The position numbers were made by a program, and so were the translations under genes. Shown piece after piece: positions 24,242 to 64,000 of a DNA stretch of 64,000 nt (positions are counted from its first letter, which is position 1; every line of letters begins with the position of its first letter). Under the pieces are notes generated by a model that worked only from the letters and a program-made list of their open reading frames with translations, was not told the origin of the DNA and did no database searches. Origin of the DNA: a virus (lineage: Duplodnaviria; Heunggongvirae; Uroviricota; Caudoviricetes); the IMG/VR virus record IMGVR_UViG_3300005748_000132, positions 20,180 to 84,179 of that record; one strand, given 5' to 3'.

Positions 24242-24781
24242 TTAGTCTTCATCCTCCCAGTCTGTGACATTGTTTAACTCATCTTCTCGCAAGTCATCCC
24301 ACGAAGTTACTTTAAACTCATTAGATACTCTAGCGTGGTTAGTTATATCCGTTCTTCTTCTGTAATTAGCTTGTTCCAACTCTCGTCTAGGGTGAACTTC
24401 ATTTAAGAAACCTTCCATGTCCTCAATCTGCTCTCTAAGTCTCCTAGCTTCCTCTCTATCGTCTTCTGTAGTAGTGTTGGGACTCTTACTATATATCTTG
24501 TTGAAAGCCTTTGTATGGGCTTTTATTTGCTTCTTAACGTCCTCTACGGTTTCCTTGTCGATTCGTATTTGGTGAACTTCGTCGTATTCCCAAGAGTTGT
24601 CAAAAGAAGCTCCGTAGTACTCTCCGTTAAACTTCTCTAGAAACTTCTTAGCTTCGTTAGTTAGTTTGGATACGTAGTGATAGTTGTCCATGTAAATCTG
24701 TCTGATTTTAGTGTTGTCACTAGGTTTTAAGTTGGAGCGTTTTTTCTTCTTTTTAGTCATTTTCTCCTTTAGAATACCCAT
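24242..24781 (-). CDS. hypothetical protein, K/E-rich (179 aa)
   Basis: ORF; no motif. Confidence 0.4.
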   Translation of the reverse strand: MGILKEKMTKKKKKRSNLKPSDNTKIRQIYMDNYHYVSKLTNEAKKFLEKFNGEYYGASFDNSWEYDEVHQIRIDKETVEDVKKQIKAHTKAFNKIYSKSPNTTTEDDREEARRLREQIEDMEGFLNEVHPRRELEQANYRRRTDITNHARVSNEFKVTSWDDLREDELNNVTDWEDED

Positions 24782-25442
24782 AAGCTCTAAGTTCGACTAG
24801 CTTACTAAGGTTTTTTCTTCGTATCATACTACCTCCGTCTGGAGGTGTAAATGTATAACTAGTACAACCTTTTGACTCCATTTCTTCTTTAATTTCTGTA
24901 AAAAATCTTCCAGAGTATCTAGGGTTTGATATAATTTTTAGTGTGTCTAAATCTAGTAAAACTCTAAGTACAGTTTCATGAGGTCTAAACTCAGCTTTTT
25001 TAGGGTCTTCTAGAGAAAACAAACTACCTTCGCTTGAATAAGTAACAGCAGAACCTTCTAATCCGAACATAGATAATCTAGTCACCTCTAGGTTGTTTTT
25101 GTTTACCTCTTCAAACTTTTTTACAGCCTTATCTAACTCCTCTAAGTACTTCTTATGACCAGTATCTTCTCTATTAGATTTGTCGACTTTTACGAATTTA
25201 CCTTCTTCAGAACTAGCGTTTAAGGCTTGTATAGATAATGTTATATAATTGTCAAAAATAGGAGACTTGTCTACGATTTTATAATACTCTAAAATCTCCG
25301 ATGAAACCTCGCGGTTAGTTTCTATAGCAATTCCATTATGTGACTCCATCATTTCATAGTTACCACTAAGTTCTATAAGATGATCTCCTATTTCTAAATC
25401 GTGTGTTTTTAATAATTCTTCTAGTTCTTCACCTTTTAACAT
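24753..25442 (-). CDS. hypothetical protein (229 aa)
   Basis: ORF in an operon-like array. Confidence 0.4.
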   Translation of the reverse strand: MLKGEELEELLKTHDLEIGDHLIELSGNYEMMESHNGIAIETNREVSSEILEYYKIVDKSPIFDNYITLSIQALNASSEEGKFVKVDKSNREDTGHKKYLEELDKAVKKFEEVNKNNLEVTRLSMFGLEGSAVTYSSEGSLFSLEDPKKAEFRPHETVLRVLLDLDTLKIISNPRYSGRFFTEIKEEMESKGCTSYTFTPPDGGSMIRRKNLSKLVELRAYGYSKGEND

Positions 25443-25771
25443 TACTTCTCCTTATTAAAATACTTAGCTCTTGTCTTACCTTCGTAACTTAAATCAAAGT
25501 TACCTGATATGTTGTAGTACTTCTGCTTACCTGTTCTTGACTTCTCGAAATACTTACTTAGTGTCCGAAAGAAACCTATTTTACTCATGTCTCCTTTGAA
25601 CTTGTCTTTATACGTATACCATATCACATAGTTGGGAGTTCTGTCAAGACTTTTTTTAAGGTTATACTCGTGAATAAACTTCTCTATTTCGTTGTTAAAT
25701 ACAGGTTTGGGTTCCGAAGAACCCTCGCCTAGTATTGAAAGGAGTTTATCAACCTCGTTCGACTCTGACAT
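25442..25771 (-). CDS. hypothetical protein (109 aa)
   Basis: ORF; ATGA overlap. Confidence 0.4.
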   Translation of the reverse strand: MSESNEVDKLLSILGEGSSEPKPVFNNEIEKFIHEYNLKKSLDRTPNYVIWYTYKDKFKGDMSKIGFFRTLSKYFEKSRTGKQKYYNISGNFDLSYEGKTRAKYFNKEK

Positions 25772-26532
25772 TACAGGGTCGCCTCGATTCTTTTAGTGAT
25801 ATTTGTGAAGTAACTTGTAAATTTCATAACATCTTCATAATTAGAACCTCTCACACTTATAGGTGCTGTAATAATAGGACAATTGGAAAACTCGACTTGG
25901 AAATTACCAAAAAAGGTTCTAACCGTTTCCATATGACTACCCATTAGGTTCTCATTACATCTTACATTGACTATTTCGTCAGCATGATTAGCTTTCACAG
26001 CTTCTCTAGCCGTTAACCAAAGTTCATCTTTAATTTGATTCCTATAGTTCTCTAAAGAAATGCCTATTCTATTTGCCGCAACTTCTTCGAGTTCAGTAAC
26101 ATTATCATGAAGCATCTTTATAACTTGGTCTAAGTCACCACCTAGTTCTCCCCCTAAGCCACTAATTTGCGCTCTGTGTGACATTAGTAATCCTGAAGAA
26201 ATGATGTACCTTTTACCTAAATTTTGAACTGTTTGATATCCCATACTTGCTGCCGTTATAGTAATTGTGTGAAACTTACACGGTAAAGCTTTCAGAGTAT
26301 CGAAGAATAATTGACCTGCTGAAATACTTCCTCCGGGACTATATAAAACTATATAAATGTCTTTCCCTTGGTTTTTTCCACATAAGTTCATAGCTTCGAT
26401 TTGTTTCTTTGCTACAAACATACCGTCAAAAGCTTGGTTGAAGTTAATAGTGTTGCTTGAATTTAATTCAATTGTCTTTGCTCCAAAAGTTAGAGCTGGT
26501 AAAAGTAGCATGATTGCTAATAGTTTTTTCAT
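25771..26532 (-). CDS. exported ClpP-like (S14-type) serine protease
   Basis: N-terminal signal peptide (MKKLLAIMLLLPALTFG). ClpP motifs: IYIVLYSPGGSISAG; Ser in TAASMG; His in MSHRAQ; Asp in …ANHADEIV. Confidence 0.65.
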   Translation of the reverse strand: MKKLLAIMLLLPALTFGAKTIELNSSNTINFNQAFDGMFVAKKQIEAMNLCGKNQGKDIYIVLYSPGGSISAGQLFFDTLKALPCKFHTITITAASMGYQTVQNLGKRYIISSGLLMSHRAQISGLGGELGGDLDQVIKMLHDNVTELEEVAANRIGISLENYRNQIKDELWLTAREAVKANHADEIVNVRCNENLMGSHMETVRTFFGNFQVEFSNCPIITAPISVRGSNYEDVMKFTSYFTNITKRIEATL

Positions 26533-26536
26533 TGTT

Positions 26537-26923
26537 CTATTCTCCTTGATATTTTTCCATAAGTTTTTTTACAGCTTTTTTTGCTCGATCGCATCTCTTA
26601 TCTACTTCAAAGAATCCAATTTCTTCAGTGATGGGTACATCAAAATTAATATGCTCTAGTGATTCCAAATGTAGTGGGTCAATAGGACCTCTGTCTATTT
26701 GTACTATTGTCATGAGATGAATGTAACCATCTTCGTCTTCTATCATAACTACACCTGATTCTTCTACTTTATCATAAGCTACAATCTTTTTAAAATCAAT
26801 TGTGACAGGTTGTATTAAATCACTAAGGTTTCCATTCTCGATAACTTCTTTTATATCTTTTTTATAAAATACGTTATCTTCATTAACAGGATAACCACTT
26901 CCTAACTTTTCACCAATTAACAT
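26537..26923 (-). CDS. hypothetical protein (128 aa)
   Basis: ORF with SD. Confidence 0.4.
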   Translation of the reverse strand: MLIGEKLGSGYPVNEDNVFYKKDIKEVIENGNLSDLIQPVTIDFKKIVAYDKVEESGVVMIEDEDGYIHLMTIVQIDRGPIDPLHLESLEHINFDVPITEEIGFFEVDKRCDRAKKAVKKLMEKYQGE

Positions 26924-26983
26924 TGTTCCTCCAATGGTTCTATATATCTTAACATGGTTTTAAACTCAGGTCAAGAGTTTTTA

Positions 26984-28747
26984 TTATCCTTCACAACTAG
27001 CACACCCTTCTTCGTTATTAATATTATCTGCTTTTATACCACTTGTACTTCGACAATAATATAGAGTCTTAACACCAAGTTCCCAAGCTTTTATGTGAAC
27101 CTTATTGAAGTATTTAGGGTCAACGTCAAAAGGAAAGAACAAATTTAAACTTTGCGATTGACATATGTACTTTTGTCTCTGAGCAGCTTGTTGTATTATA
27201 GAGTTTTGATCAAGTTCATAAGCTGTTTTATAAACATTTTTTTGGTCATCCGTCAAAAACTCTAAATGTTGAACGCTTCCTGAGTTCTTAATTATAGATT
27301 TCCAAACTTCATCAGTATCTTTATCTATTTCTGAAAGTAACTTTTTTAAGTTCTTATTTCTTCTTTGAAAGGTTCCTTTAGCTGTAATGTCATTATAAGC
27401 ATTTGAAACTATAGGCTCTATACTGGCACTAACATCTCCACAGATGATAGAGTTTGATCTAGTTGGAGCTAAAGCAAGAAGATGGCTATTATATAAGTCA
27501 GTACCCTTACACCAATCAGGTTCTCCCCTATCTTCTGCTAATTTTTTACTAGCCTTTACAGACTCTTCTTTTATAAACTTGTGAATTTCATTGTTCAATT
27601 GCATTGCTCTAAAACTCTCAAAAGCTATATTATTCTTCTGAAGGTAACTATGCCATCCCATAACTCCAACACCTATAGCTCTACCCTTTTTAGCACTAGC
27701 TACCGTTCTTTCCATGTAAGGTATGTTGGATGCTTTGTTGATAAACTCGTCTAAGACACCGTTTAGGAACATTGTAGCGATTTCAGGGACACTATATCCT
27801 GTTCTAGGAGATTTGTAGTCTTTCCATTCATCGTAACTATCTAAGTTTAAGCTAGATAAACAACAAATAAAACTGTGATCTCCGTCAGCAAATAAAGTTA
27901 TCTCTGAGCAAATATTGGTCATATTAACTTTAAGACCATTGTTCTTGTAAGCTTGAGGATTGTTATTATTCACTGTATCATTAAACATTATGTAAGGCTC
28001 ACCTGTTTCTAATCTAGTTTTAAGGAGTTCTGTCCATTTTAACCTAGCTTCTAAATCTCCGTTCTTAACTTTATGCATAAACTCATCGTTTATCATAGTA
28101 CAATGGTGCATGTTCAAAGCTTGTCTGTTCACATCACCTTCTGGTCTTCTCATTCTTACGAACTCTCCCCAGTCTTTATGCTCTATATTGAGGTTAGCCG
28201 AACTATTCCCTCTTCTGACTCTCCCTTGTTTTGAAGCTAACGTGGCTGAGTCGTAGACTTTAATGAAAGGGATTACTCCATCACTGGTTCCATTCTTACC
28301 ACCTTTTATGAAACTACCAGAGGGTCTTAAATTATTCATACCTATTCCGACACCACCTGAGTTCTTACTCATCATAGCAAGTTCACCCGGTCCTCTACCC
28401 ATAATATCTTCCATTCTGTCTTCTAAGTTAAAACCGAAACAACTAATAGGTAAACCTCTGTCTGTACCTAAGTTCATTAGTATCGGAGAGGCTGGTCCTA
28501 AGAAGCTTCTGTATATAATTTCAAAGAAGTCGTCTTTAAGGTCATCTGAATACTTACCAGATTTAGCAGCAGCTCTCGAAACTCTACGATACATTGCTTT
28601 AGGAGTTTCATCTTCTAAAAGATAACCTCCTTTTAAAGTAGTATATCCTTCTAGTGTCAACCACTCAGGAGACTCTTTATCTTTTTTTAGTTGTTCAAGT
28701 TCTTTTTCTAAGTTACCCATCATACCCCTCAAATAAATTGTCAACAC
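26984..28747 (-). CDS. nrdA: ribonucleoside-diphosphate reductase large subunit (class I, no ATP-cone)
   Basis: Active-site NMTNICSEITL (N-x-C-S-E-I); C-terminal CxxC tail (GCASCEG); 587 aa. The track start overlaps nrdB by 35 nt; the true start may be the internal Met-Met. Confidence 0.85.
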   Translation of the reverse strand: MLTIYLRGMMGNLEKELEQLKKDKESPEWLTLEGYTTLKGGYLLEDETPKAMYRRVSRAAAKSGKYSDDLKDDFFEIIYRSFLGPASPILMNLGTDRGLPISCFGFNLEDRMEDIMGRGPGELAMMSKNSGGVGIGMNNLRPSGSFIKGGKNGTSDGVIPFIKVYDSATLASKQGRVRRGNSSANLNIEHKDWGEFVRMRRPEGDVNRQALNMHHCTMINDEFMHKVKNGDLEARLKWTELLKTRLETGEPYIMFNDTVNNNNPQAYKNNGLKVNMTNICSEITLFADGDHSFICCLSSLNLDSYDEWKDYKSPRTGYSVPEIATMFLNGVLDEFINKASNIPYMERTVASAKKGRAIGVGVMGWHSYLQKNNIAFESFRAMQLNNEIHKFIKEESVKASKKLAEDRGEPDWCKGTDLYNSHLLALAPTRSNSIICGDVSASIEPIVSNAYNDITAKGTFQRRNKNLKKLLSEIDKDTDEVWKSIIKNSGSVQHLEFLTDDQKNVYKTAYELDQNSIIQQAAQRQKYICQSQSLNLFFPFDVDPKYFNKVHIKAWELGVKTLYYCRSTSGIKADNINNEEGCASCEG

Positions 28748-29684
28748 TTATTGTACTTTTGCTATATTCTGTATTTCTTGCGTGAAAAAAATCAGATAAA
28801 TTCTGACCAAATACCATTTCTTCAAACCAATCCATCTTCTTAAGGGAGTCAAGGTCTATATTTTTCCAGTTTGTTTTCAAACCCATTGCTAGTAACTTTT
28901 CGTTAGCTCTATTTCTGATGTAATTCTTAACATCTCTATGGTCTAGACCTCTGATAGTACCTAGAGAAAAAGCCTTGTCAATAAAGTCATCTTCTAATTG
29001 AACCGCTAATCTAGCAGCTTCGTAAATTTCACCCTTGAGTTCTTTATCCCATATCTCAGGGTTTTCTGACACTAAAGTATTAAATAACCATATTCCTGCT
29101 CTCGAATGTAAGTCCTCATCTAAAGCTGACCACTCTATAATATTTTTCATACCACTCATCATGTTGTATCTAGACAAGCTAATTAAGATGGCAAAAGAGC
29201 TAAATAAGTTAACCCCTTCTGTAAAACCTGAGAATATAGCTAGTCTTCTTGCGATATCTCGTTTAGTTTTACCTTTTACGTTTTTAATCTTATCTAGTTT
29301 AGCTACTGCTGTTTCGTCTTGCATGAAAGCTTCATAATCGTCTAAACCTAAGGAGTCATTAAGATAACTATAAGCTTGAGTATGGATAGTTTCCATGTTT
29401 GAGAAAGCTGCACACATCATTTGCACTTCTGGTTTTCTAATAAGATTTCCCAAGTGTCTCCAGTAATCATTACCTACAACAAGCTCGACCTGAGTGAATG
29501 ACTTTAGAATTTGACCGTATACATCTCTTTCGCTTTGAACAAGATCTTCTTTCCAGTTTTTTATATCTGAAGCTAAAGATACTTCAGAAGGTAACCAGTG
29601 TGCATTTTGTTGTTTTTCCCAGAAATCATAGGCTTTTGGATATTCAAATGGTTTATAAACTTCACGAGGTTTCAACAGACTCAA
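28713..29684 (-). CDS. nrdB: ribonucleotide reductase small subunit (ferritin-like di-iron)
   Basis: Di-iron ligand motifs (…METIHTQAY…, …EDLHS…); directly upstream of nrdA. Confidence 0.8.
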   Translation of the reverse strand: MSLLKPREVYKPFEYPKAYDFWEKQQNAHWLPSEVSLASDIKNWKEDLVQSERDVYGQILKSFTQVELVVGNDYWRHLGNLIRKPEVQMMCAAFSNMETIHTQAYSYLNDSLGLDDYEAFMQDETAVAKLDKIKNVKGKTKRDIARRLAIFSGFTEGVNLFSSFAILISLSRYNMMSGMKNIIEWSALDEDLHSRAGIWLFNTLVSENPEIWDKELKGEIYEAARLAVQLEDDFIDKAFSLGTIRGLDHRDVKNYIRNRANEKLLAMGLKTNWKNIDLDSLKKMDWFEEMVFGQNLSDFFHARNTEYSKSTISVDNLFEGYDG

Positions 29685-29696
29685 CTACAACTCCTT

Positions 29697-29954
29697 TTAT
29701 AATAGTTTATCACAAGCTTTCTTAACTTTACTCAATTCCTTAACAATTTTCTCTTGACTAGTATACACCGACTTACTAGCTTTGTCAATACTCTCCCTAA
29801 CCTTTCTCACTTCTTTCAAAGCTTCGTCCCTAGTCTTCTCTATTTCAGAAACATAGTGACTTCCCCCTAGTGTCACACCAGTTACAAATACTAAATGGTA
29901 AGCTATTTGAACTAGTTTACAAAGGTTATTTTCAATCCATTGTTTCATGCTCAA
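29697..29954 (-). CDS. small membrane protein (85 aa)
   Basis: One TM (VQIAYHLVFVTGVTLGG) followed by a charged helix. Confidence 0.4.
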   Translation of the reverse strand: MSMKQWIENNLCKLVQIAYHLVFVTGVTLGGSHYVSEIEKTRDEALKEVRKVRESIDKASKSVYTSQEKIVKELSKVKKACDKLL

Positions 29955-30492
29955 ACTCCTTCACCCCTTCTCCTCGCAAATAACCCTCACACACTCCCAG
30001 AGCGTCGAAATAGTCGCTAGGAACCGTCCTAAGATTACCTGTTATGTTACTCTCAATCTTCTCTGGAATGTCCATTTTAGCCCTGAAATAAGCTTCTGTA
30101 GGCTGTTTATAATCCCTCTTTCCCTTAGCATTTTTTACAGCCTTTATACCGCAGTTTTTTCGCCAAGTCTGAGGAGTTATCTGATTAAGTTTCAAACCTA
30201 GTTCTTCGCAAACTGACATAACAGCCCCTTGAAGATGGGGACAAACTAGCGAACCCATGACTCTGCTAGTGTTGAAAACGTAACTCTCGAACACTACTTT
30301 TTCTAGCTTCTCATCAGAGTTTATGAACATTCTCTTAACAAATCTAGCTATCTCATAGCACTTTTTCTCGACACTATCGTCTTTATGAAACCAAATAGCT
30401 CCTACTTCTTGTATGATAGCTTTGTTTTTAGTTGACTCTGCTATTACGTAGCCTGTGCATGTTGATGATATGTCAAGGAATAAGGTTTTCAT
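29932..30492 (-). CDS. RuvC-like Holliday-junction resolvase
   Basis: N-terminal FLDISSTCTGYVIAE (catalytic Asp); acidic VVFESY and DYFDALGV positions consistent with the RuvC fold. Confidence 0.6.
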   Translation of the reverse strand: MKTLFLDISSTCTGYVIAESTKNKAIIQEVGAIWFHKDDSVEKKCYEIARFVKRMFINSDEKLEKVVFESYVFNTSRVMGSLVCPHLQGAVMSVCEELGLKLNQITPQTWRKNCGIKAVKNAKGKRDYKQPTEAYFRAKMDIPEKIESNITGNLRTVPSDYFDALGVCEGYLRGEGVKEFEHETMD

Positions 30493-30872: not shown

Positions 30873-30915
30873 CTTCCTCCATTATTGTAGCACGAACTTT
30901 ATTCTGAGTCAACTA

Positions 30916-32743: not shown

Positions 32744-32745
32744 AA

Positions 32746-53694: not shown

Positions 53695-53751
53695 TTAATT
53701 ACGTTCCAGTCTGAACTCGATAGTGTCGGAAGGTATGTGACACCTTATTTC

Positions 53752-54969: not shown

Positions 54970-55126
54970 GAGTCTCTCCTTACAGTTTCAAAATTAAAAA
55001 CATTCAATAACCCTAATCCTAAATTTAAAACACCTAATTCGACTTTACCTACACTAATTAAGTAAACTCCTGTTGATGTACAAAACATTGCCGCAAATCC
55101 AGCAATTCCTAAAGCTACGTTTCTCA

Positions 55127-56056: not shown

Positions 56057-56057
56057 G

Positions 56058-56683: not shown

Positions 56684-56833
56684 TCCTCCAAGTTACAAAC
56701 GCTATAAAGTTCAAAGGTAACAAAAGTATCGCTAGTAACCTAGCTGTTTCGTCACCTCGTACTATAGTATAGCATATAATTATTAATTGTGCAAGTAGTA
56801 AAACTAGTCTAGTGTAGCTATTTTTGTAGTTTT

Positions 56834-57826
56834 TCACAGCTTGACCAAGCCCTTCATACTCCCACTTTTACAGAAACCTCTATAGATGCATCCTCCAAAC
56901 TTGTCGCAACTATCTAGGTTCTTCTCGAAAGCTCCCTTACCTTCTTGTAGCTTCTCTTTTATTTCCACAGTAACCTGCTCTATCTCGTCGAACACCTCAT
57001 CAAGATGCTCCTCTGTAATAACCCCTTCTATAAAGCTAAGTCGCACCCTCGGAACCCTTTTGCGAATCTTCTTGTCACCTACCAGATAAGCTACCTCAGG
57101 AATACCCTCTTCTTGGCTGTAAATACCTAGCTGACGACTCTTTGAAGCTGAGTCACTAGGGTAGTATAGCTTAGGGTTAGAGCTTGTTTTCAGGTCAATT
57201 AAGACCGTCCTACCGTCTTTTAACTTCACAATAAAGTCTAAGTAGCCTATGAACTTGTCACCTAGCTCGTTCTCGATCTCTATCTTCTTCTGACAAGCTA
57301 TAGTCTCAGCTACATTCTCGTCAATCCATTCTACCAAAGCTTCTAGTAGTAATAAACCTTTTTCCTTTAGTGTCAAAAACGCACAGTAATTAAAAAGCTT
57401 CTGTTCAATTTCCGAGTATACCTTACGCTTTTTTCTAAGCTGTTTGCAGTATTCTAGAAACTCGTCTGCTTTTACAGCTTCTATCTCAAGGTCGTCACAA
57501 AACTTATCTAACTCACTCTGGTCTATTAAGTCTGCGTCACAGTCTCCTGCTCCAAACCTTAGTGAGAGTAAGTCTTCAGGAAGCTTCTTGACTTCGTTGT
57601 TAACTTCAAAGCTCATTATCTGGTTCAAATACTCTTGTTTATAGTCGCTAACTTCACCTAGTAGGTATTTCTCAATCGTGGAATCAAGGTTTTTACCAAA
57701 GTACAAAGGTGAACTAAGAAAGTCAGGTCGTATCTTCATGACTTTATCTAAATACCATTTACGAGGACAATCTGTGTAGGTGTCTATTTGACTGTTGGAA
57801 AGGTATAGTTTTTTAGAAGTAGACAT
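56834..57826 (-). CDS. Cas4/RecB-like PD-(D/E)xK exonuclease with 4-Cys cluster
   Basis: N-terminal YTDCPRKW Cys; core GYLDFIV…LIDLKTS (D…D-x-K); C-terminal CDKFGGCIYRGFC (three Cys). Confidence 0.6.
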   Translation of the reverse strand: MSTSKKLYLSNSQIDTYTDCPRKWYLDKVMKIRPDFLSSPLYFGKNLDSTIEKYLLGEVSDYKQEYLNQIMSFEVNNEVKKLPEDLLSLRFGAGDCDADLIDQSELDKFCDDLEIEAVKADEFLEYCKQLRKKRKVYSEIEQKLFNYCAFLTLKEKGLLLLEALVEWIDENVAETIACQKKIEIENELGDKFIGYLDFIVKLKDGRTVLIDLKTSSNPKLYYPSDSASKSRQLGIYSQEEGIPEVAYLVGDKKIRKRVPRVRLSFIEGVITEEHLDEVFDEIEQVTVEIKEKLQEGKGAFEKNLDSCDKFGGCIYRGFCKSGSMKGLVKL

Positions 57827-58265
57827 ACCAATCCAATCCGTCCTCTACCTCATCTAAATAAGGATTAGACTTATAGTGTCCGAGTTTCAGTAAATTGAAC
57901 ATAATTTTTATTAATTCCTTTTTATCATCGTCTCTTACGTTCTTAACAGCCCATTTCATATAGTCAGAATCTACATCATGTAACCTTTTACCTTTGAATT
58001 TTCCAAAAGTAACTTCCGTGTCCAACATTTTATCAATCTTATCTTGCTTTACTTTTTTAGCCCTTTCTTCTAAATTCAGAAAATCAGGTTCGTACTGTTT
58101 AATTACTTCATCTAACAAACTTATTAACTCACTATTCGGAGAAGTACCAAATTGAGGTCCATATGCTTCATAATCTATGTAGTCTTCAATTTCTTCCAAT
58201 TCTGCCAACCTTTCGTATTCTTCTTTTAATAAAGTTAACAATAAACTTTCTTTTTTCTTCGACAT
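57813..58265 (-). CDS. hypothetical protein (150 aa)
   Basis: ORF. Confidence 0.4.
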   Translation of the reverse strand: MSKKKESLLLTLLKEEYERLAELEEIEDYIDYEAYGPQFGTSPNSELISLLDEVIKQYEPDFLNLEERAKKVKQDKIDKMLDTEVTFGKFKGKRLHDVDSDYMKWAVKNVRDDDKKELIKIMFNLLKLGHYKSNPYLDEVEDGLDWYVYF

Positions 58266-58519
58266 TAAAATTCTCCATTTAGTTTAAAGTCACAAGTCTT
58301 GCTGCACCACAAACCTCTTTGTCTTAAATAAGTTTCTTTCTGCTTAAGAGTCGGTTTCATTGCACTTTTCCAAGCGTTGTACCTAACTCGTTCCTTATTT
58401 AAAGTTCTGTACATAGTTTCATACTTTCTGCGATACTTTTTATACTTCTCACTTTTTTGGTACTTATTTATTGCAGATGTCATACCCTTGTAGTATTTGT
58501 TATCACTATAGTCTTTCAC
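58265..58519 (-). CDS. hypothetical basic protein (84 aa)
   Basis: ORF. Confidence 0.35.
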   Translation of the reverse strand: MKDYSDNKYYKGMTSAINKYQKSEKYKKYRRKYETMYRTLNKERVRYNAWKSAMKPTLKQKETYLRQRGLWCSKTCDFKLNGEF

Positions 58520-58658
58520 ATTTTCTCCTTAAAATAAGCTGTTAAACTAAATCCTATACCTAAAACCGCGACACTACTCCCTAGTATTGTACCAGTCCCA
58601 AGCATATAAGCTAGTATAGCACATAAAAAAGCTAAGATCAAGTAAGTTACAGGTTCTT

Positions 58659-58910
58659 TCACATCACACTCAACATTTCCGAGTTGTAGACCCTACTAGC
58701 TAAAGTACTTAGTCCTTTAAATAAAGCGTTCTCTAGGTTCTCACCAGTAGTTTTAATCAAGCTTCTTCCTGTAAGTTCGTCAATAATTTCCACAGTAGTA
58801 CCCACTTCTTCTAAACTTTCTTGTATGAAAGTTACCTCGTAGTTTAATCCACAGTCGTGAAGATGCTTTGTTAAGTCTGTTAACAGGTTTACGTTAGTGT
58901 CAAAGTTCAT
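58659..58910 (-). CDS. hypothetical protein (83 aa)
   Basis: ORF. Confidence 0.35.
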   Translation of the reverse strand: MNFDTNVNLLTDLTKHLHDCGLNYEVTFIQESLEEVGTTVEIIDELTGRSLIKTTGENLENALFKGLSTLASRVYNSEMLSVM

Positions 58911-58911
58911 A

Positions 58912-59367
58912 CTATTCTCCTTTATACTCTATCATAGGACATACTTTATTTTTAACAGCGTAGAACATTCCTTTCATAACTCCGTTCTCTTTAGTGTCAC
59001 GGTTTTCGTAACTTTTTCTAATCCTATACGCTGAATACTTCTTATGTAGATAATATCCTAACCCTATGACAAATAAAGCTGTTTGGAGGAGAATCAATGA
59101 CTGAGTATCTTCATCAAAGTTTTCCATAAAAAATAGTAATATGGGAGATATCACTACACTAATCAGACCACCGATGACCATCGTCATAAAAAACCCAAAT
59201 AGTAAACAAACTAAATTGGCGAATAAGAAACCCCAAAAATAATTACATATGGCTTTAGGTTCTTCAAAGTATCCAGTCATAACATTTTCTACAAGATACT
59301 TATACCATCTGTAATGCCACGAATTTCTATTAATTGTTACTTTCATACTATTCTCCTTTATATCCAT
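58912..59367 (-). CDS. integral membrane protein (151 aa)
   Basis: Two or three hydrophobic helices (FWGFLFANLVCLLFGFFMTMVIGGLISVVISPILLFF). Confidence 0.45.
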   Translation of the reverse strand: MDIKENSMKVTINRNSWHYRWYKYLVENVMTGYFEEPKAICNYFWGFLFANLVCLLFGFFMTMVIGGLISVVISPILLFFMENFDEDTQSLILLQTALFVIGLGYYLHKKYSAYRIRKSYENRDTKENGVMKGMFYAVKNKVCPMIEYKGE

Positions 59368-59545
59368 GTTCTCTAGCTACCTTGTAAATCTCTAGTAACT
59401 CGGCTTCATAAACAGTTTTTAACCTGACAATTTCTTCTCTAAGTTTCATCGTCTCGTCTTTTTCAGAAAGGTATTTTTCCCTGTACTTAGCTGAAAACCC
59501 GACACTACAAGTATATATTAAGATTAGACCTATGAATATTGTCAT
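59348..59545 (-). CDS. small membrane protein (65 aa)
   Basis: N-terminal TM. Confidence 0.35.
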   Translation of the reverse strand: MTIFIGLILIYTCSVGFSAKYREKYLSEKDETMKLREEIVRLKTVYEAELLEIYKVAREHGYKGE

Positions 59546-59769
59546 TATTTAACACCTCGTATCAGCTTTTGCATAGTGTCCAAACTCATCGGAAGCTCCA
59601 TTAAGCTAGTCTTAACCGTCTTGCTGGTTATGTCCTTGCCGTTAGAATTGTCTATAACCTTGAACTTCTGCTTAGTTCGCACTAAGTCAAGTACGTAGTT
59701 TATTGTAACATGCTTTGATAAAGTTGTCGAGTAAAGTTTTCTGTTGTTGTATCTTTTTATAATTTCCAT
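59545..59769 (-). CDS. hypothetical protein (74 aa)
   Basis: ORF. Confidence 0.35.
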   Translation of the reverse strand: MEIIKRYNNRKLYSTTLSKHVTINYVLDLVRTKQKFKVIDNSNGKDITSKTVKTSLMELPMSLDTMQKLIRGVK

Positions 59770-59770
59770 G

Positions 59771-60046
59771 CTAACTCCTTTTATTAAAGTTTCCTTCCGA
59801 CCTCACATACTTACCTAACTTCCTTGACCAAACTAGTTCAGCGTCAGGTAAAAACGATCTTATAACCTCAGTCTTACCATTTTGATACGTTATCAGAAGC
59901 TCCCTAAGACCCCCTATGAGCATTTCACCTACTTGTATGGTAGTACCTATAGGGTAAGTTAAGTCCTTCATAAAAAGCTGGTTAAAAGCTTCTACAGAAT
60001 TATCTAGTTGTGCGTCAAATTGGTTTATTTTTTCACCTATGTTCAT
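59771..60046 (-). CDS. hypothetical protein (91 aa)
   Basis: ORF. Confidence 0.35.
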   Translation of the reverse strand: MNIGEKINQFDAQLDNSVEAFNQLFMKDLTYPIGTTIQVGEMLIGGLRELLITYQNGKTEVIRSFLPDAELVWSRKLGKYVRSEGNFNKRS

Positions 60047-60054
60047 ACCTTCTC

Positions 60055-60297
60055 CTAATGTAGTGTCGCATTTTCTGTTGTTAACCTAATCTCTTTTTCA
60101 AAGCTACTAAAAGCTTGTAGCTTCAACATTTCCACCTCAATAAGCTCCGCAGCCTCATAAGCCTCCTGATTGTACCTAGCTTCCGAAGTAGGGTTCTTAG
60201 TTTTCTTAGCTTTTCTAATAGCCTCGTCGTAGGTATCTAGTAATCCGTTGATACTCTCTTCAATTTCTTCAATAGTTTCTTTTGTAGTTTGCTGCAT
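60055..60297 (-). CDS. hypothetical protein (80 aa)
   Basis: ORF. Confidence 0.35.
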   Translation of the reverse strand: MQQTTKETIEEIEESINGLLDTYDEAIRKAKKTKNPTSEARYNQEAYEAAELIEVEMLKLQAFSSFEKEIRLTTENATLH

Positions 60298-60299
60298 AT

Positions 60300-60719
60300 T
60301 TACTCCTTTGTTTTTATAGCATTTTTAAAATACTCAACTAAATAAACTCTAGGTGCTTTGTAAGCTTTATAAGCGTTCATTAGATGCTCTGTTTTAAATA
60401 CGCTAATAGTTAACGGAGTTAAGAGTATGATACCGACAAAGGTACTAATAACCATAACTTCAGTAAGACCCTCTTTTTCAAAATCCCTCTTCCCGTCTTT
60501 GTCTTTTTTTATAAACAAGAAGTATATAAATGCTAAAAATAAAACCGCTATAGGAATAGTTATAAAAAAGTCATTAAAATATTCCACTAAATGTTCTATT
60601 GTTTTAAAATGTAATAGTTCTTGTACGTAAATAGGTACTTCTTTACCTAGAAAAGCTTCGGCACTATTTACATAACTTAAAGACTTTTGTATAAGTTTAT
60701 TTAAAATTTCTTCTTTCAT
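60300..60719 (-). CDS. membrane protein (139 aa)
   Basis: Two TM helices. Confidence 0.4.
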   Translation of the reverse strand: MKEEILNKLIQKSLSYVNSAEAFLGKEVPIYVQELLHFKTIEHLVEYFNDFFITIPIAVLFLAFIYFLFIKKDKDGKRDFEKEGLTEVMVISTFVGIILLTPLTISVFKTEHLMNAYKAYKAPRVYLVEYFKNAIKTKE

Positions 60720-60758
60720 ATCTGCTCCTTTGTTACTTATATTATACCAGTTCTAACG

Positions 60759-61052
60759 CTATGTGTCAAGCTCTTTTTTGCCAAAACAATTTAAAAACTT
60801 TTTATGTTCGTCGTCAAGTTTCACACCTAAGTCACTTATCTTTAAATTGTAGTTAGTCTCGAAGTCAAGAAAGCTTTGTAGATGCTCCTCAAAGTCTTTA
60901 ACAGCTTCTTCTTTTTCTACAGGAAGATAGTTTTTACCTTCGATTATATCTAGCAAGTCTTGAGTTTCCTTGTAACCGTAGAACTTTTCCATGTCTATAA
61001 ATGGGTAGTCGTATAGTGTCGATAAAACGTCGTCTAATTCATTAATCGTCAT
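60759..61052 (-). CDS. hypothetical acidic protein (97 aa)
   Basis: ORF. Confidence 0.35.
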   Translation of the reverse strand: MTINELDDVLSTLYDYPFIDMEKFYGYKETQDLLDIIEGKNYLPVEKEEAVKDFEEHLQSFLDFETNYNLKISDLGVKLDDEHKKFLNCFGKKELDT

Positions 61053-61389
61053 TTAGTAACCTCTCTTGTTTATCAGATTCATATCTACATTCTTCTGCGT
61101 ATTCTTTTGCGCTTCTCTCGTACTCTTCGTAAGCTTCGATAGCGTAAATTTCCGAACTATATAAACCTAACTCATCAGCTAAGTTTTCAGCACAATCTTC
61201 TAAATATTCTTCTCTAGTTTCGTAGTCGCTAGGTGTTTCGGAAGCTTCGTACTCTTGCATCTTAGTGTCAAATTCCTCGACACTACTTTCTACTAGTGAG
61301 TAAAATTCATAGTTCTCAGCTTTGAAAACTTCTACTTCGTTGTCGTAAGGTGAAGCTAGTCTCCATTGGTCGTATTTATCCCAGTTCAT
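61042..61389 (-). CDS. hypothetical very acidic protein (115 aa)
   Basis: E/D/Y-rich. Confidence 0.35.
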   Translation of the reverse strand: MNWDKYDQWRLASPYDNEVEVFKAENYEFYSLVESSVEEFDTKMQEYEASETPSDYETREEYLEDCAENLADELGLYSSEIYAIEAYEEYERSAKEYAEECRYESDKQERLLNDD

Positions 61390-61437
61390 ATTTACCTCCT
61401 AATTTATTATGCCAGTTTTAGTGCTTTGTGTCAATAG

Positions 61438-62052
61438 TTAATTATAATAACCAATCCCTAGACCATTTTCTATAGCATCTTGAAAAATCTCTTTGTACCT
61501 AGTTTTTCTTTCTTCATGAGTTATGAAAAAAACTCGAAAGTTACTACTCAAAACTATAGCTAAACTTAGTATTTCTTTTTGATGCGTTTCGTTAACGTGT
61601 TTAAAGTCGAAGAATATTTTCTTATCTATTTTAGAAGCTTCTATTTCAAAAAGCAAGTCTCTTAGCAAGTCAAGTCCTAAATCGTAACTATTATTTTTAG
61701 AAACTACTTTTCCTTTGTAGGTTTTGTCATGGTTTAAGACTATATCGTCTTTTGCCGACACTATATCAAATTCTACTATCTTGAAACACTCATGGTTTTC
61801 GTAGTCTAATATTCCTAAGAAACCTTTTATTGTATTGTCTTCAAACTCTCTTAAGTCTCCGCCTATTCTATGACCTATGTTAACTATGCAATTACCATTT
61901 TCATCAAGCAAGTTATCTTTTATAGATGGTTGGTACTCTTCTACTGGTTTACCACAACTTATTAAAATTAGCAATAATAAAAATTTCATATTGTCCTTTA
62001 TGCATTGTGTCAACTTGTTTAAAAAAGAGGCGAACTTAATCGCCTCAAACAC
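61438..62052 (-). CDS. glycerophosphodiester phosphodiesterase (GDPD)-like lipoprotein
   Basis: Lipobox LILISCGK; NIGHRIGG (H-R-G catalytic motif); EFDIVSAKDDIVLNHD (E-x-D…HD). Confidence 0.5.
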   Translation of the reverse strand: MFEAIKFASFLNKLTQCIKDNMKFLLLLILISCGKPVEEYQPSIKDNLLDENGNCIVNIGHRIGGDLREFEDNTIKGFLGILDYENHECFKIVEFDIVSAKDDIVLNHDKTYKGKVVSKNNSYDLGLDLLRDLLFEIEASKIDKKIFFDFKHVNETHQKEILSLAIVLSSNFRVFFITHEERKTRYKEIFQDAIENGLGIGYYN

Positions 62053-62061
62053 AAGGAGTAA

Positions 62062-62694
62062 TTAGTCAACTTCGCAAGAAGTCGCTACACTTAGTCTATG
62101 TAAGATGTGACCTAATAATCTACTCTCACAAACTATTTCTAAATCTTCGACACTATTAGTCAGGTCTATAATATCATTTTCAAGTTGGTTAATTTGTACA
62201 ATAGTTTCATTGATCGAAACAGTGTTAGCGTTGTCACCTTCCTCAATCATTTGCTCCAACCTAGCTACTTCAATAGCTAACTCGGTATGGGCTTTCTGTA
62301 CAGCATTGTTAATAGCTTGTGAAAGCTCCGTATTTACCCTAGAAAGCTCTCTAGAAAGCTCTCCTATACTCAGAGTAGTGCTATTAAAAGAAGCTCTCAT
62401 TTCGTCTCTTAGAGCGTCAATTTGAGCTTGTAAATCAGCTAAGTCTGTCTCTAACTCGTCTACCCTTTCATCAGTGTCTTCTTTTGTACCTAAGATATCG
62501 TTACCAATGTGCCTAGGAAGCTGTCCGAACCCTTCAATAACTTGACCTATGTTTTCTACTCCGTTGTGGAGTTCTCTATCTACAGTTTGTTTAGCGTTTG
62601 TTAACTCTCTGTCAACGTCTTGCTTGATTTGAGTAAGTTCCTTACCGCAGGATACTAGAGTTAATAGTGTTGTAATTGTTAATAATTTTTTCAT
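62062..62694 (-). CDS. coiled-coil lipoprotein (210 aa)
   Basis: Lipobox LTLVSCGK; long heptad-repeat helices. Confidence 0.5.
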   Translation of the reverse strand: MKKLLTITTLLTLVSCGKELTQIKQDVDRELTNAKQTVDRELHNGVENIGQVIEGFGQLPRHIGNDILGTKEDTDERVDELETDLADLQAQIDALRDEMRASFNSTTLSIGELSRELSRVNTELSQAINNAVQKAHTELAIEVARLEQMIEEGDNANTVSINETIVQINQLENDIIDLTNSVEDLEIVCESRLLGHILHRLSVATSCEVD

Positions 62695-62707
62695 GTTCGT
62701 TTTCTCC

Positions 62708-63340
62708 TTAGTTGTTAAATTGTGCTTTGAAAGCTTCGTAACTTTCTTTACTTATTTCTATTTCTTTACCGTCAATTATGATGGTCTTAGTTTGCTTAAA
62801 AACTATTCCAGTAGTTTCCTCTAGTATCTTAGCGTCGAAATTAGGTACACTTTCTAAAAACTCTCTGTCTTCTTTTGTAACTTCCTTACCGTTATAAGTT
62901 GACTTGTTTACTTTTAAATAACCTCCTGTAGTTTTGTAAGTAGGGTTATCAATTTTCTCTTGTTCTGTCATTTTATTTTCATATACCCATTCACATAATA
63001 GTTTTTGATATTTGTATATAATACTTCTAAATTTATTGTGATTTTCTCCATGAAACTCCCAACCACTGTCTTTATTAAATAGTCTAACAGTAGGTATATT
63101 AGTGTTACAGTCACCTGTGTTATAGTCACCTGTGTTACGGCTACCTGTGTTATAGTGACCTGTGTTAAAGTCACCTGTGTTATAGTTACCTGTGTTATAG
63201 TGACCTGTGTTACAGTGACCTGTGTTGGAGCTACCTGTGTTACGGTTACCTGTGTTATAGTCACCTGTGTTACAGTAACCTGTGTTATAGTAACCTGTGT
63301 TAAAGTCACCTGTGTTATAGTAACCTGTGTTAGTTGACAT
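62708..63340 (-). CDS. pentapeptide-like tandem-repeat protein (NTG-x-x)x16 plus C-terminal globular domain
   Basis: N-terminal 80 aa is (N-T-G-[YDHNS]-[YFCRS]) x ~16, encoded by the 15-nt tandem repeat at ~63102..63333; C-terminal ~130 aa is non-repetitive. Confidence 0.55.
   Translation of the reverse strand: MSTNTGYYNTGDFNTGYYNTGYCNTGDYNTGNRNTGSSNTGHCNTGHYNTGNYNTGDFNTGHYNTGSRNTGDYNTGDCNTNIPTVRLFNKDSGWEFHGENHNKFRSIIYKYQKLLCEWVYENKMTEQEKIDNPTYKTTGGYLKVNKSTYNGKEVTKEDREFLESVPNFDAKILEETTGIVFKQTKTIIIDGKEIEISKESYEAFKAQFNN
63102..63333 (-). repeat. 15-nt tandem DNA repeat (~15 units, consensus on top strand N-ACCTGTGTTA-N-AG-N) inside CDS
   Basis: Read directly from the sequence. Confidence 0.9.
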
Positions 63341-63350
63341 ATTTACTCCT

Positions 63351-63611
63351 TTATTGAATAACGCTTTCTACCATATTAGTAAGCATGAATTTATCTTTAT
63401 CGTGCATATTTACTGACTCTATAGCTTTTAACAAGTCCTCTTTATTATAACCTGTTTCAACTTCGTTGTCAACTTCTTTTAGTTCAAGCTTCCAATTATA
63501 TTCGTCTAAAACTCCGATTCTAGTACAGCTTATAACCTTGAAAACTTCACTTGTCTCGTTGTCTTTTATTATTGTTCCAGTTTTGTAAAATTGTTTTGAT
63601 TTAGTTTGCAT
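63351..63611 (-). CDS. hypothetical protein (86 aa)
   Basis: ORF. Confidence 0.35.
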   Translation of the reverse strand: MQTKSKQFYKTGTIIKDNETSEVFKVISCTRIGVLDEYNWKLELKEVDNEVETGYNKEDLLKAIESVNMHDKDKFMLTNMVESVIQ

Positions 63612-63618
63612 ATTACTC

Positions 63619-64000
63619 CTATAAGTCTCTTAATATTTTTTCTAAAGCTATTTCTATCATACTTTTTATTAACGGTATATCTTCGTTGTTGTTATACTCA
63701 CTGTCACTAAAAACAGTATCTAATTGATCAATAGTATAGTCTCTACAACCTATATGAATACTAGAGTAGGTTACAGTAATAGGGTATTGAAAACCTAGTA
63801 TGTTAAAATAGTGACTAGTTTTTGAAATTTCGTCAAAATCTCGCACCCTAGCATTACCATACACCCTAGCATTATCATACACCCTAGCATTATCATACAC
63901 CTCAGCATTACCATACACCCTAGCATTACCAGACACCTCAGCATTACCATACACCCAAGCATTACCAGACACCCAAGCATTACCAGACACCCAAGCATTA
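63619..64000 (-). CDS. hexapeptide-repeat (G/D-N-A-x-V-x) protein, 5' partial at window edge
   Basis: N-terminal GNAWVSGNAWVYGNAEVSGNARVYGNAEVYDNARVYDNARVYGNARV encoded by an 18-nt tandem repeat (~63847..64000+). The repeat reaches the window end, so the true N-terminus is probably outside the window. Confidence 0.5.
   Translation of the reverse strand, partial: NAWVSGNAWVSGNAWVYGNAEVSGNARVYGNAEVYDNARVYDNARVYGNARVRDFDEISKTSHYFNILGFQYPITVTYSSIHIGCRDYTIDQLDTVFSDSEYNNNEDIPLIKSMIEIALEKILRDL
63847..64000 (-). repeat. 18-nt tandem DNA repeat (top-strand unit CCTAGCATTACCATACAC and variants), >=8 units, continues past window end
   Basis: Read directly. Confidence 0.9.

Follow-up and report, generated by a model that had tools for sequence, protein, structure and literature searches.

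The present study concerns a short DNA word, CGACACTA (complement TAGTGTCG), which consists of the core GACACTA with a C at position -1, and its extreme abundance in 64,000 nucleotides (hereafter the window, meaning this whole stretch) of an uncultured aquatic phage. The window covers positions 20,180 to 84,179 of IMG/VR record IMGVR_UViG_3300005748_000132 and is part of an 84,179-bp JGI contig. Coding sequence makes up 98% of it, the genes switching from the + to the - strand after 24,241, and an AGGAG ribosome-binding site is present at nearly all genes. Structural, lysis and replication modules are found. The structural block is highly divergent and includes a 1041-aa protein with an endolysin domain, while the Pfam and PHROG matches reveal a replication and nucleotide-metabolism block of the type found in virulent phages. 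This block holds both ribonucleotide reductase subunits, dUTPase, NAMPT, PRPP synthetase and a macro domain; a DnaB-like helicase, an AEP-type primase (45698-46549) and a PolB-exo-like DNA polymerase; and a Sak annealase, a PD-(D/E)XK nuclease, a RuvC-like resolvase, ClpP and an HNH/EndoVII-like nuclease. No tRNA genes were found in the window. The DNA polymerase shares 46-48% identity with its counterparts in Vibrio, Nitrincola and Rheinheimera phages, and no cultured relative was found for the structural module. No nucleotide-level match was obtained among 50,697 GenBank phages, no match in an Rfam scan of the window and no exact 36-mer match in GTDB genomes.

An exact search of both strands found 44 copies of CGACACTA/TAGTGTCG in the window, against 1.23±1.11 (maximum 4) in dinucleotide shuffles. 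When all k-mers on both strands were compared with a third-order Markov model (Markov-3), this word stood far ahead of every other one (z = 35), and the over-representation noticed by eye in the first-pass annotation is thereby upheld. Relative to Markov-3 the 8-mer is enriched about 30-36-fold, and the 7-mer core, with 86 copies where about 10 are expected, about 9-fold. The base at -1 of these 86 core sites is C in 44, T in 29, G in 9 and A in 4. Both strands carry the element (26 + and 18 - for the strict word, 47 + and 39 - for the core), and the densities reach 0.69 per kb for CGACACTA and 1.34 per kb for GACACTA. Three single-mismatch forms are also enriched, namely CAACACTA (16 against 3.0 expected), CGACAATA (10 against 1.2) and CGACGCTA (7 against 0.4), whereas the other single substitutions of the word are not. 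Together with these near-cognates the motif family amounts to 119 sites.

The earlier estimate of 45-50 copies between 24 and 62 kb is too high for the strict 8-mer, of which 34 copies lie from 24,186 on, and becomes roughly correct when one-base variants are admitted (60 core copies within 24,242-64,000); the positions quoted with it were right to within about 12 nt. The remaining 10 strict copies lie in 1-24,000, so the motif is indeed sparser in the structural block, a deficit which is mostly due to a single motif-free island. The description of the motif as a feature of the early/replication block was too narrow, since it is spread genome-wide with the exception of this island.

Genes contain 84 of the 86 core sites, and the expectation under protein coding was obtained by shuffling synonymous codons within each gene, a procedure which keeps every protein and the codon usage of each gene. 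The core was expected 15.7±3.2 times (maximum 25) against the 86 observed, and the 8-mer 4.2±1.7 times against 44. All four stop-free frames are enriched over these shuffles by 3-12-fold: GAC-ACT-A (D-T-x) with 26 sites against 8.5, xxG-ACA-CTA (x-T-L) with 21 against 1.9, antisense xxT-AGT-GTC (x-S-V) with 22 against 2.0 and antisense xTA-GTG-TCx ([ILV]-V-S) with 14 against 1.2. The frame that would read TAG is never used and the CGA/TGA-CAC-TAx frame has one site. The sense sites number 48 against about 10.9 expected and the antisense sites 36 against about 3.2, and since both are equally enriched, whatever the direction of transcription, an explanation at the RNA or peptide level is ruled out. 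Writing the word requires the rare codons TCG, GCG, CTA and GTC, and the dipeptides DT, TL, SV and VS are only 1.06-1.17-fold above expectation. The first-pass annotation had proposed a DNA-level signal, not a protein motif, carried in many genes and frames; the frame-resolved shuffles and the comparison with relatives bear this out. The peptides which it quoted (WEIVSRI, FDLVSGK and KLDSVGI) are present, and as it stated, no annotated feature explains the motif.

A context in which the protein allows the core by synonymous choice occurs 258 times in the window, and 84 of these contexts (33%) are realised, the fraction rising to 41% in the early block, 47% in the [ILV]-V-S frame and 67% in the D-T-x frame. 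Such a saturation of 33-67% points to a signal whose number is maximised and not to a few regulatory sites. The C at -1 is present in 19 of 22 x-S-V sites and 8 of 14 [ILV]-V-S sites, while the sense frames need rare NNC or NCG codons to provide it. In the early block the strict 8-mer favours the top strand by 22:12 or 1.8-fold, a bias previously put at 2-3 times and read as a possible orientation signal; these coding constraints on the C at -1 explain it.

The information in the flanks of the core is wholly upstream, with none downstream. Of the 44 C-type sites, 24 have C at -10, 30 have A at -7 (41 if T is counted as well), 39 have A or T at -6 and 39 at -5, 37 have a pyrimidine at -4 and 39 at -3, and 39 have a base other than A at -2. 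These preferences are alike in each of the four frame classes and are therefore not a codon effect. The element is thus about 17 bp long and asymmetric, 5'-C-N-N-A-W-W-Y-Y-B-(C>T)-G-A-C-A-C-T-A-3', with GTCCAAAATCTCGACACTA and GTCAAAAACCTCGACACTA as typical instances and GTCNGAAAYCNCGACACTA as its 17-mer form. One helical turn separates the strongly specified blocks, and an A/T tract lies in between; this arrangement suggests a protein reading duplex DNA. A weak inverted half-site TAGTGTC is found at a 9-bp spacer even when close pairs are removed (mean 2.49 matches against 1.83±0.19, z = 3.5). Four pairs of sites are less than 40 bp apart and all have the form TAGTGTC-N9/10/19/25-GACACTA, with arms 16-32 bp apart. 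The spacing of sites is otherwise near random, being slightly more even in the early block (coefficient of variation 0.79 for the family, P = 0.016), and no orientation switch or skew was observed along the 64 kb, in which the genome ends and the origin were not located.

About 20 related contigs were gathered from IMG/VR, JGI, ENA, NCBI and Logan, with polymerase identities of 74-83% and structural protein identities of 40-74%. In 323 kb pooled from 19 of them there are 5 copies of CGACACTA (0.015 per kb) and 35 of GACACTA (0.108 per kb), the density of the strict word being about 45-fold lower than in the window, and none of the related contigs examined has a hyper-abundant word of its own. 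When 45 pairs of site and relative were compared, conservation of the 8-mer (0.586) was below that of its flanks (0.716). The orthologous positions in 10 relatives are without the word, apart from a single site shared with L022, and because the relatives agree on another state at these positions, the sites are derived in the lineage of the window. They arose from proto-sites already matching at 5/8-6/8 positions. In the DNA polymerase gene one site was formed by three synonymous changes, one by YDVA->YSVA and one by T-V-D->S-V-A. A minority class is ancestral and set at the protein level, comprising the TGACACTAC (D-T-T) sites at 11243, 11609 and 12830, which are conserved in L153; the antisense C-type sites near this class correspond only to near-sites in L153.

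L022, from SRR14866223, is the closest fragment (3.6 kb, polymerase 83% identical). It contains 2 copies of CGACACTA where 0.076 would be expected (P = 0.003), and one copy is the ortholog of the site at 44145. Sharing of the motif is limited to this contig. L001 and L023 have a homologous AEP primase and helicase and no copy of CGACACTA, and Rheinheimera phage Barba has 3 copies in 84.6 kb. L026, found through its NAMPT (87% identity), was considered as a motif-bearing relative and rejected, as it is a different, PolA-type phage without the motif. Similarly, the word ACCAGTATTC of phage Barba19A (24 copies) is not an analogous signal but a tandem repeat in one gene. Among distant relatives (L002-L007, 42% G+C), CGACTACC occurs 4-6 times per approximately 10 kb, on one strand and at orthologous positions. 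It was considered as a family trait with shifting specificity and set aside; as its copies occupy the same orthologous positions in closely related contigs, they are not independent evidence, and their origin may lie in a conserved feature of the peptide or in a small array of sites on one strand.

A scan of 185,579 genomes for the inverted motif pair gave at least 120 matches, which look like chance apart from a palindrome in Saprospiraceae. Among the matches listed (at least 120) there are nine Saprospiraceae metagenome-assembled genomes (L050, L054, L072, L085, L095, L127 and L148, and also L074 and L136), the first seven of which share the long palindrome TAGTGTCGGGGTGACT-loop-AGTCACCCCGACACTA, with the arm TAGTGTCGGCGTGACT in L054. 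The palindrome is apparently a hairpin repeat specific to that family, with no relation to the phage.

Table 1. Sites of the word and other features in the window. Coordinates are those of the 7-nt core; CGACACTA denotes the core with C at -1. For near-cognates the 8-mer starts are listed with their strands.
Feature	Coordinates	Strand	Basis	Remark
GACACTA, -1 G	1376..1382	-	exact search	
GACACTA, -1 T	1889..1895	+	exact search	
GACACTA, -1 T	2313..2319	-	exact search	
CGACACTA	2518..2524	+	exact search	
GACACTA, -1 T	2692..2698	+	exact search	
GACACTA, -1 G	3291..3297	+	exact search	
CGACACTA	3506..3512	-	exact search	
CGACACTA	3582..3588	+	exact search	last site ahead of motif-free island
CGACACTA	8973..8979	-	exact search	first site past island; near-site only in L153/L154
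GACACTA, -1 T	9468..9474	+	exact search	
CGACACTA	9695..9701	-	exact search	near-site only in L153
GACACTA, -1 T	11195..11201	+	exact search	D-T frame
TGACACTAC	11243..11249	+	exact search	D-T-T codons; kept in L153, ancestral protein-level class
GACACTA, -1 T	11393..11399	+	exact search	
CGACACTA	11609..11615	+	exact search	L153 has TGACACTAC
TGACACTAC	12830..12836	+	exact search	kept in L153, ancestral class
CGACACTA	13360..13366	-	exact search	near-site only in L153/L154
GACACTA, -1 A	14014..14020	+	exact search	
GACACTA, -1 A	15894..15900	+	exact search	
GACACTA, -1 T	20041..20047	+	exact search	
GACACTA, -1 A	21939..21945	+	exact search	
GACACTA, -1 T	22023..22029	+	exact search	
CGACACTA	23075..23081	-	exact search	
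CGACACTA	23488..23494	-	exact search	
CGACACTA	23621..23627	+	exact search	
CGACACTA	24187..24193	+	exact search	
GACACTA, -1 G	25559..25565	-	exact search	
GACACTA, -1 G	27788..27794	+	exact search	
GACACTA, -1 T	28652..28658	-	exact search	
GACACTA, -1 T	29068..29074	+	exact search	
GACACTA, -1 T	29868..29874	-	exact search	
CGACACTA	30370..30376	+	exact search	
CGACACTA	30729..30735	-	exact search	
GACACTA, -1 G	32127..32133	-	exact search	left arm, inverted pair N10
CGACACTA	32144..32150	+	exact search	right arm, inverted pair N10
GACACTA, -1 T	33332..33338	-	exact search	absent at orthologous L001 position
GACACTA, -1 T	34244..34250	-	exact search	absent in L001
CGACACTA	34497..34503	-	exact search	
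CGACACTA	36548..36554	-	exact search	
CGACACTA	37357..37363	+	exact search	
CGACACTA	37600..37606	-	exact search	absent in L001
GACACTA, -1 T	38058..38064	-	exact search	
CGACACTA	38723..38729	-	exact search	
CGACACTA	38946..38952	+	exact search	
CGACACTA	39631..39637	+	exact search	
GACACTA, -1 T	40160..40166	+	exact search	
CGACACTA	40509..40515	+	exact search	absent in L001
CGACACTA	42401..42407	+	ortholog alignment	DNA polymerase gene; 10 relatives: CAACATCA/CTACATCG; via YDVA->YSVA
CGACACTA	42743..42749	-	ortholog alignment	DNA polymerase gene; three synonymous changes (GCG, ACA, CTA)
CGACACTA	43022..43028	+	ortholog alignment	DNA polymerase gene; relatives: CTACGGTA
GACACTA, -1 A	43943..43949	-	exact search	
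CGACACTA	44145..44151	+	exact search, ortholog alignment	sole site conserved in closest relative L022
CGACACTA	44968..44974	-	exact search	
CGACACTA	45124..45130	+	exact search	
CGACACTA	45610..45616	+	exact search	
GACACTA, -1 G	46888..46894	-	exact search	
GACACTA, -1 T	47043..47049	+	exact search	
GACACTA, -1 T	47220..47226	-	exact search	L001: CGATACTA
GACACTA, -1 T	47863..47869	-	exact search	left arm, inverted pair N25
GACACTA, -1 T	47895..47901	+	exact search	right arm, inverted pair N25
GACACTA, -1 T	48155..48161	+	exact search	gene junction
GACACTA, -1 T	48537..48543	-	exact search	
CGACACTA	50592..50598	+	exact search	
CGACACTA	51652..51658	+	exact search	
CGACACTA	52249..52255	+	exact search	
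GACACTA, -1 T	53419..53425	+	exact search	
CGACACTA	53721..53727	-	exact search	intergenic
GACACTA, -1 G	54501..54507	-	exact search	
CGACACTA	54811..54817	+	exact search	
CGACACTA	55232..55238	+	exact search	
CGACACTA	55768..55774	-	exact search	
CGACACTA	56485..56491	-	exact search	left arm, inverted pair N19
GACACTA, -1 T	56511..56517	+	exact search	right arm, inverted pair N19
GACACTA, -1 T	57368..57374	-	exact search	
GACACTA, -1 G	57874..57880	-	exact search	only G-H-Y frame site
CGACACTA	58570..58576	+	exact search	
GACACTA, -1 T	58895..58901	-	exact search	
GACACTA, -1 T	58992..58998	-	exact search	
CGACACTA	59501..59507	+	exact search	
GACACTA, -1 G	59574..59580	-	exact search	
CGACACTA	60061..60067	-	exact search	
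CGACACTA	61014..61020	-	exact search	
GACACTA, -1 T	61263..61269	-	exact search	left arm, inverted pair N9
CGACACTA	61279..61285	+	exact search	right arm, inverted pair N9
CGACACTA	61757..61763	+	exact search	
CGACACTA	62149..62155	+	exact search	
near-cognate CAACACTA, n=16	span 1612..62672			1612-, 8523+, 8802+, 12136+, 14589+, 24472-, 24709-, 26448-, 30267-, 35506-, 38505+, 42763-, 49329+, 53266+, 53356+, 62665-
near-cognate CGACAATA, n=10	span 9881..56423			9881-, 13011+, 13597+, 23044+, 27051+, 33582-, 34482+, 35489+, 53341-, 56416-
near-cognate CGACGCTA, n=7	span 9021..62837			9021+, 10034-, 32892-, 50572-, 55372-, 56282-, 62830-
HNH/endonuclease VII-like gene	48563..49285	-	PHROG 1035/3118	
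motif-free island	3701..8605	.		0/31 possible sites realised

The island extends over 4.9 kb, and the absence of every possible site in it differs from the genome-wide realisation of 33% with P = 5e-6. It covers most of a 1551-aa structural gene (3178-7833) and the genes at 7830-8264 and 8261-8605. Of the 4 possible sites in the initial 520 nt of this 1551-aa gene, 3 are realised, and the boundary is a sharp one inside the gene. The G+C content of the island is not distinct. We infer a recent recombinational import of DNA from a motif-free relative, and local counter-selection would give the same picture. A gap at 16-20 kb was considered as a second island and discarded, because only 5 possible sites are found there.

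The most favoured explanation, to which we give a probability of only about 0.35, is that the motif forms a lineage-specific, chromosome-wide array of recognition sites for a double-stranded DNA-binding protein and may function as an additive identity tag. The element is written into open reading frames mainly by codon choice and occasionally by amino-acid replacement, in both orientations. The protein is proposed to contact GACACTA in one major-groove segment and C(-10) one helical turn upstream, with a narrow or bendable A/T tract between them. The sites would act additively, 'the more the better', following the logic of Chi, uptake sequences and HIP1 and not that of a promoter or operator. 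Such a tag could allow a process which moves along or samples the whole molecule, on either strand, to treat phage DNA unlike host or imported DNA, the candidate processes being sparing from a nuclease, loading, packaging and repair. The array of protein recognition sites is preferred because of the duplex-like footprint, the graded variants, the absence of an equivalent word in the relatives and the early-block spacing, which hints at selection for coverage. The graded enrichment of near-cognates is as expected from a binding energy landscape. The data establish the element, its DNA-level origin, its saturation, its derived state and its lack in the relatives and in one island, whereas a protein as the reader, duplex DNA as the form that is read and the action of the reader are putative elements of this proposal.

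Several observations weigh against this explanation. No reader protein was found, and no known DNA-binding family in the 64 kb covered, out of the 84-kb contig, is tied to the motif; candidate readers include the HNH/EndoVII-like protein, a PHB_acc_N-like 74-aa protein (59545-59769) and the genes of the other 20 kb. The palindromic half-site signal is modest, z of about 3.5 having been reached across approximately 77 offsets, and purifying selection is backed by one orthologous conserved site only (44145). No computed result separates functional selection from a neutral drive such as biased repair, and a host-imposed signal is compatible with the data. A more specific form of the proposal, which we regard as doubtful, is that a phage-encoded reader of the approximately 17-bp tags distinguishes phage DNA from host or competitor DNA without base modification, the array having been gained recently in one lineage and being not yet established in the putatively imported 4.9-kb segment. 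Candidates for such a self-identity reader are factors for nuclease sparing, packaging or repair, and loaders.

Of the four candidate roles listed without a choice in the first-pass annotation, the Chi-like signal, the DNA-modification target and the binding array are compatible with the results. Two other explanations survive the tests along with the array of binding sites. One of them, which we consider unlikely, is a host Chi-like signal, that is, a word recognised by RecBCD or AddAB and accumulated in both orientations so that any free end is soon protected. An asymmetric 7-8-mer with graded single-mismatch variants, a density rising up to saturation ('the more the better') and the restriction to one lineage, as expected after a host switch, all suit such a signal, and both orientations would be needed if the genome ends are permuted. 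An annealase and an exonuclease are encoded by the phage itself, and the window showed no recognisable Gam-like inhibitor. However, no relative has an enriched word, though each should carry the Chi of its own host. The information extending to -10, the helical spacing and the A/T tract suggest duplex recognition and not an 8-nt single-strand channel, the 1.3-1.9 sites per kb are far above the Chi densities known to us, and there is no polarity along the window.

The other surviving explanation, also improbable in our judgement, is biased repair or gene conversion (molecular drive), in which a phage or host enzyme nicking mismatches in near-cognates converts proto-sites and the word itself is functionless. 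This mechanism has been proposed for very short patch (VSP) repair and discussed for HIP1. Molecular drive would account for proto-sites having become sites through several substitutions, some of them mildly non-conservative replacements in a core enzyme, for the enrichment of near-cognate intermediates, for the equality of the two orientations and for the lack of the motif in the putatively imported island, and a lineage-specific HNH/EndoVII-like nuclease is present. On the other hand, an enrichment of about 35-fold with 33-67% saturation is far beyond the VSP-type effects known to us, the early-block spacing is slightly more even than random, and no Vsr- or MutH-like mismatch-repair-type enzyme was recognised in the window. 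The conservation of HIP1 also argues for selection over biased repair (PMC5861425).

The first-pass annotation had named sites of a phage nicking endonuclease as a candidate role and had pointed to the HNH gene, which is present at the position given by it and belongs to the endonuclease VII/HNH type of PHROG. In this scheme the HNH protein or an unseen late gene product would introduce localised single-strand interruptions into the packaged DNA as in T5, phiKMV and tf. We find it quite unlikely, the proposal being weakened by the use of both strands and by the opposed pairs, while the short over-represented word and the presence of the HNH gene remain in its favour. In known arrays the consensus words are likewise short, highly over-represented and peculiar to a lineage, as with TACTRTGMC, present 14 times in the 46 kb of phage tf, and nickase and sites have been proposed to co-evolve (PMC3517423). 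A long asymmetric footprint would suit modular HNH nickases. However, the T5, phiKMV-like and tf/LUZ24-like sites are all on one strand (PMC3517423) whereas 47 + and 39 - sites are seen here, and four opposed pairs 16-32 bp apart would bring a risk of double-strand breaks. The count is 6-20 times that of known arrays, and the site positions are conserved among relatives in the LUZ24 group but not here. The HNH gene is the only recognisable site-specific nuclease in the window. It has no homologue at the same position in L001 and no close relatives in IMG/VR, and no detectable relatives in which it co-occurs with the motif; with nothing tying it to the motif it is a weak candidate for the reader.

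Primase start sites on the lagging-strand template are a very unlikely explanation. The complement TAGTGTC would template the primer ACAC(UA) and contains GTGTC, one of the recognition pentamers of T7 gp4. One site per approximately 1.4 kb per strand corresponds to the scale of Okazaki fragments, both strands are needed as templates, and the AEP gene and a DnaB-like helicase are present. However, the motif is missing from relatives that share this primase (63% identity) and helicase (68%), no DnaG/Toprim zinc-finger primase was found in the window, and primases normally need only 3-5 nt. The flanks look like a duplex contact.

Transcription signals, either promoters of a phage RNA polymerase or stoperator-like repressor sites across the genome, are highly improbable. 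The core matches a part of the SP6 promoter exactly (SP6/K11 -9..-3, GACACTA), and stoperators are dispersed asymmetric sites which co-evolve with a repressor. Against this, the sites lie almost entirely in coding sequence (84/86) with sense and antisense equally enriched and no orientation rule. Only 4/86 continue as TATAG, while a promoter of this type would be expected to have about 20 bp ending in TATAG/TAAAG and to be co-oriented with genes, and the 64 kb showed no recognisable single-subunit RNA polymerase, sigma factor or repressor.

Finally, the idea that the motif is no DNA signal, arising from a repeated peptide in a single frame, from codon bias or from an assembly or base-calling artefact, could draw on the protein-level D-T-T class kept in L153 and on the high background of the D-T frame (8.5, the highest of all), but it is already refuted by the synonymous shuffles, which leave a 5-10-fold excess, with four frames and two orientations in use, dipeptides hardly raised, and sites that replace diverse ancestral words without indels, keep the frames open and never use the TAG frame.

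Other features of the window were also recorded. The palindromes CAGCTG, GAGCTC, GCTAGC and CTGCAG, as well as GGCC, have 0 copies each where tens are expected on both strands (Markov-2 for 4-mers, Markov-3 for 6-mers), and GATC is at 57% of expectation. This avoidance of palindromes indicates heavy past exposure to restriction systems. CAGCAG/CTGCTG is approximately 2.3-fold over-represented (68 against 30), being an EcoP15I-type word and also a product of Gln/Ala codon repeats. C-ending codons are scarce in the window genes (TCC 49, GCC 43, CCC 28) and NAC codons are nearly as frequent as NAT codons (GAC 666 and GAT 761, AAC 553 and AAT 671, TAC 417 and TAT 490); this near-parity may come from a decoding preference of the queuosine-tRNA type. 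CCCGGTCC has 4 copies (28386, 31839, 39149 and 50163, + strand) against 0.03 expected (Markov-3), all antisense to genes. It was rejected as a second signal, as it represents the GGA-CCG-GG codons for G-P-G in P-loop or glycine-rich motifs; the proteins concerned are four distinct ones, all with the same rare CCG codon.

The genes at 50519-53242 form a nicotinamide adenine dinucleotide (NAD)-salvage and ADP-ribose cluster (macro-domain protein, NAMPT and PRPP synthetase) which is conserved across the phage family and is likely a counter-measure against NAD-depleting or ADP-ribosylating host defences. Two pentapeptide-repeat genes (62708-63340 and 63619-63990) are made of 15-nt tandem repeats, one with ACCTGTGTTAYAGTN about 15 times encoding NTG(D/H)Y-type repeats and the other encoding GNA(W/R/E)V(S/Y)-type repeats. 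DNA mimicry is known for pentapeptide proteins, and Barba19A has an analogous pentapeptide gene with ACCAGTATTC repeats. ACCTGTGTTA(TAGT), with 14 copies, was considered as a promoter and rejected, since it is a 15-nt tandem repeat inside the pentapeptide-repeat gene 62708-63340.

The word described here provides a small and tractable case of a second code superimposed on the protein code, in which an 84-kb virus has the word at one third of the affordable positions, and codon use and even DNA polymerase residues are reshaped by it. Chi, uptake sequences and HIP1 are the classic cases of such a code and are known from bacteria. Hyper-abundant words are thus a kind known from bacteria, whereas the present form is not described for a virus and is a member of no named family; no report of an over-represented octamer in phage genomes was found in the literature, and a full-text search for the motif string gave only polymerase chain reaction primers. 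As the relatives are without the word, its origin is recent and the reader should be sought among a limited number of lineage-specific genes or in a host factor. If a phage protein reads the word, this would be a modification-free marking of self DNA by a virus. If the host imposes it, the phage would report an unknown Chi, uptake or repair signal of the host and thereby identify that host.

In comparison with known systems, the statistically closest objects are the bacterial uptake sequences and HIP1. The uptake signal sequences (USS) of Pasteurellaceae and DNA uptake sequences (DUS) of Neisseriaceae likewise have a core that is short and asymmetric, a one-sided, weaker flank rich in A/T, a density of about 1 per kb in both orientations, mostly intragenic positions in the cheapest frames, and poorly conserved residues, and they are absent from relatives (PMC2817400). 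They are also absent from recently acquired DNA (PMC2817400), to which the island with its 0/31 sites would correspond if it is an import, its G+C being not distinct. The proteome effect of USS tripeptides is about 2-fold against the 1.06-1.17-fold of the dipeptides here, and USS/DUS are read by the uptake machinery of naturally competent bacteria, whereas the present motif belongs to a lytic-type phage with no competence context seen. HIP1 (GCGATCGC) of cyanobacteria is also a lineage-specific 8-mer which is tens-fold over-represented within and between genes (PMC5861425); its over-representation is 15-300-fold and its function is debated between selection and biased repair (PMC5861425). It differs in being a bacterial palindrome with methyltransferase sites, while the motif here is asymmetric and viral and no methyltransferase was recognised among the window genes by Pfam and PHROG.

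The nick arrays of T5, phiKMV-like and tf/LUZ24-like phages are similar in being phage-borne, with an over-represented consensus that varies by lineage and a phage nuclease as the suspected reader (PMC3517423). They consist of 4-14 major sites on one strand at partly conserved positions (PMC3517423), in contrast to the 86-119 saturating and unshared sites on both strands in the window. Chi is similarly an asymmetric 5-8-mer which acts by density as a genome-wide identity signal, with partial-match variants partly active, but it is defined by a host enzyme and oriented with replication; here no polarity is seen, the density is several-fold higher, and the footprint is apparently longer than 8 nt. 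The stoperators of Cluster A mycobacteriophages are again dozens of asymmetric sites over a phage genome whose specificity differs by lineage. Stoperators occupy intergenic positions or the ends of genes and follow the direction of transcription, whereas the sites described here are nearly all intragenic (84/86) and free in orientation, with no repressor found in the window. SP6/T7-type promoters differ by requiring an RNA polymerase gene, of which the 64 kb show none, and by the equal enrichment of antisense and sense sites here. T7 gp4-type primase sites have in common with the word the pentamer GTGTC, and phages with the same primase (L001 and L023) do not carry the word.

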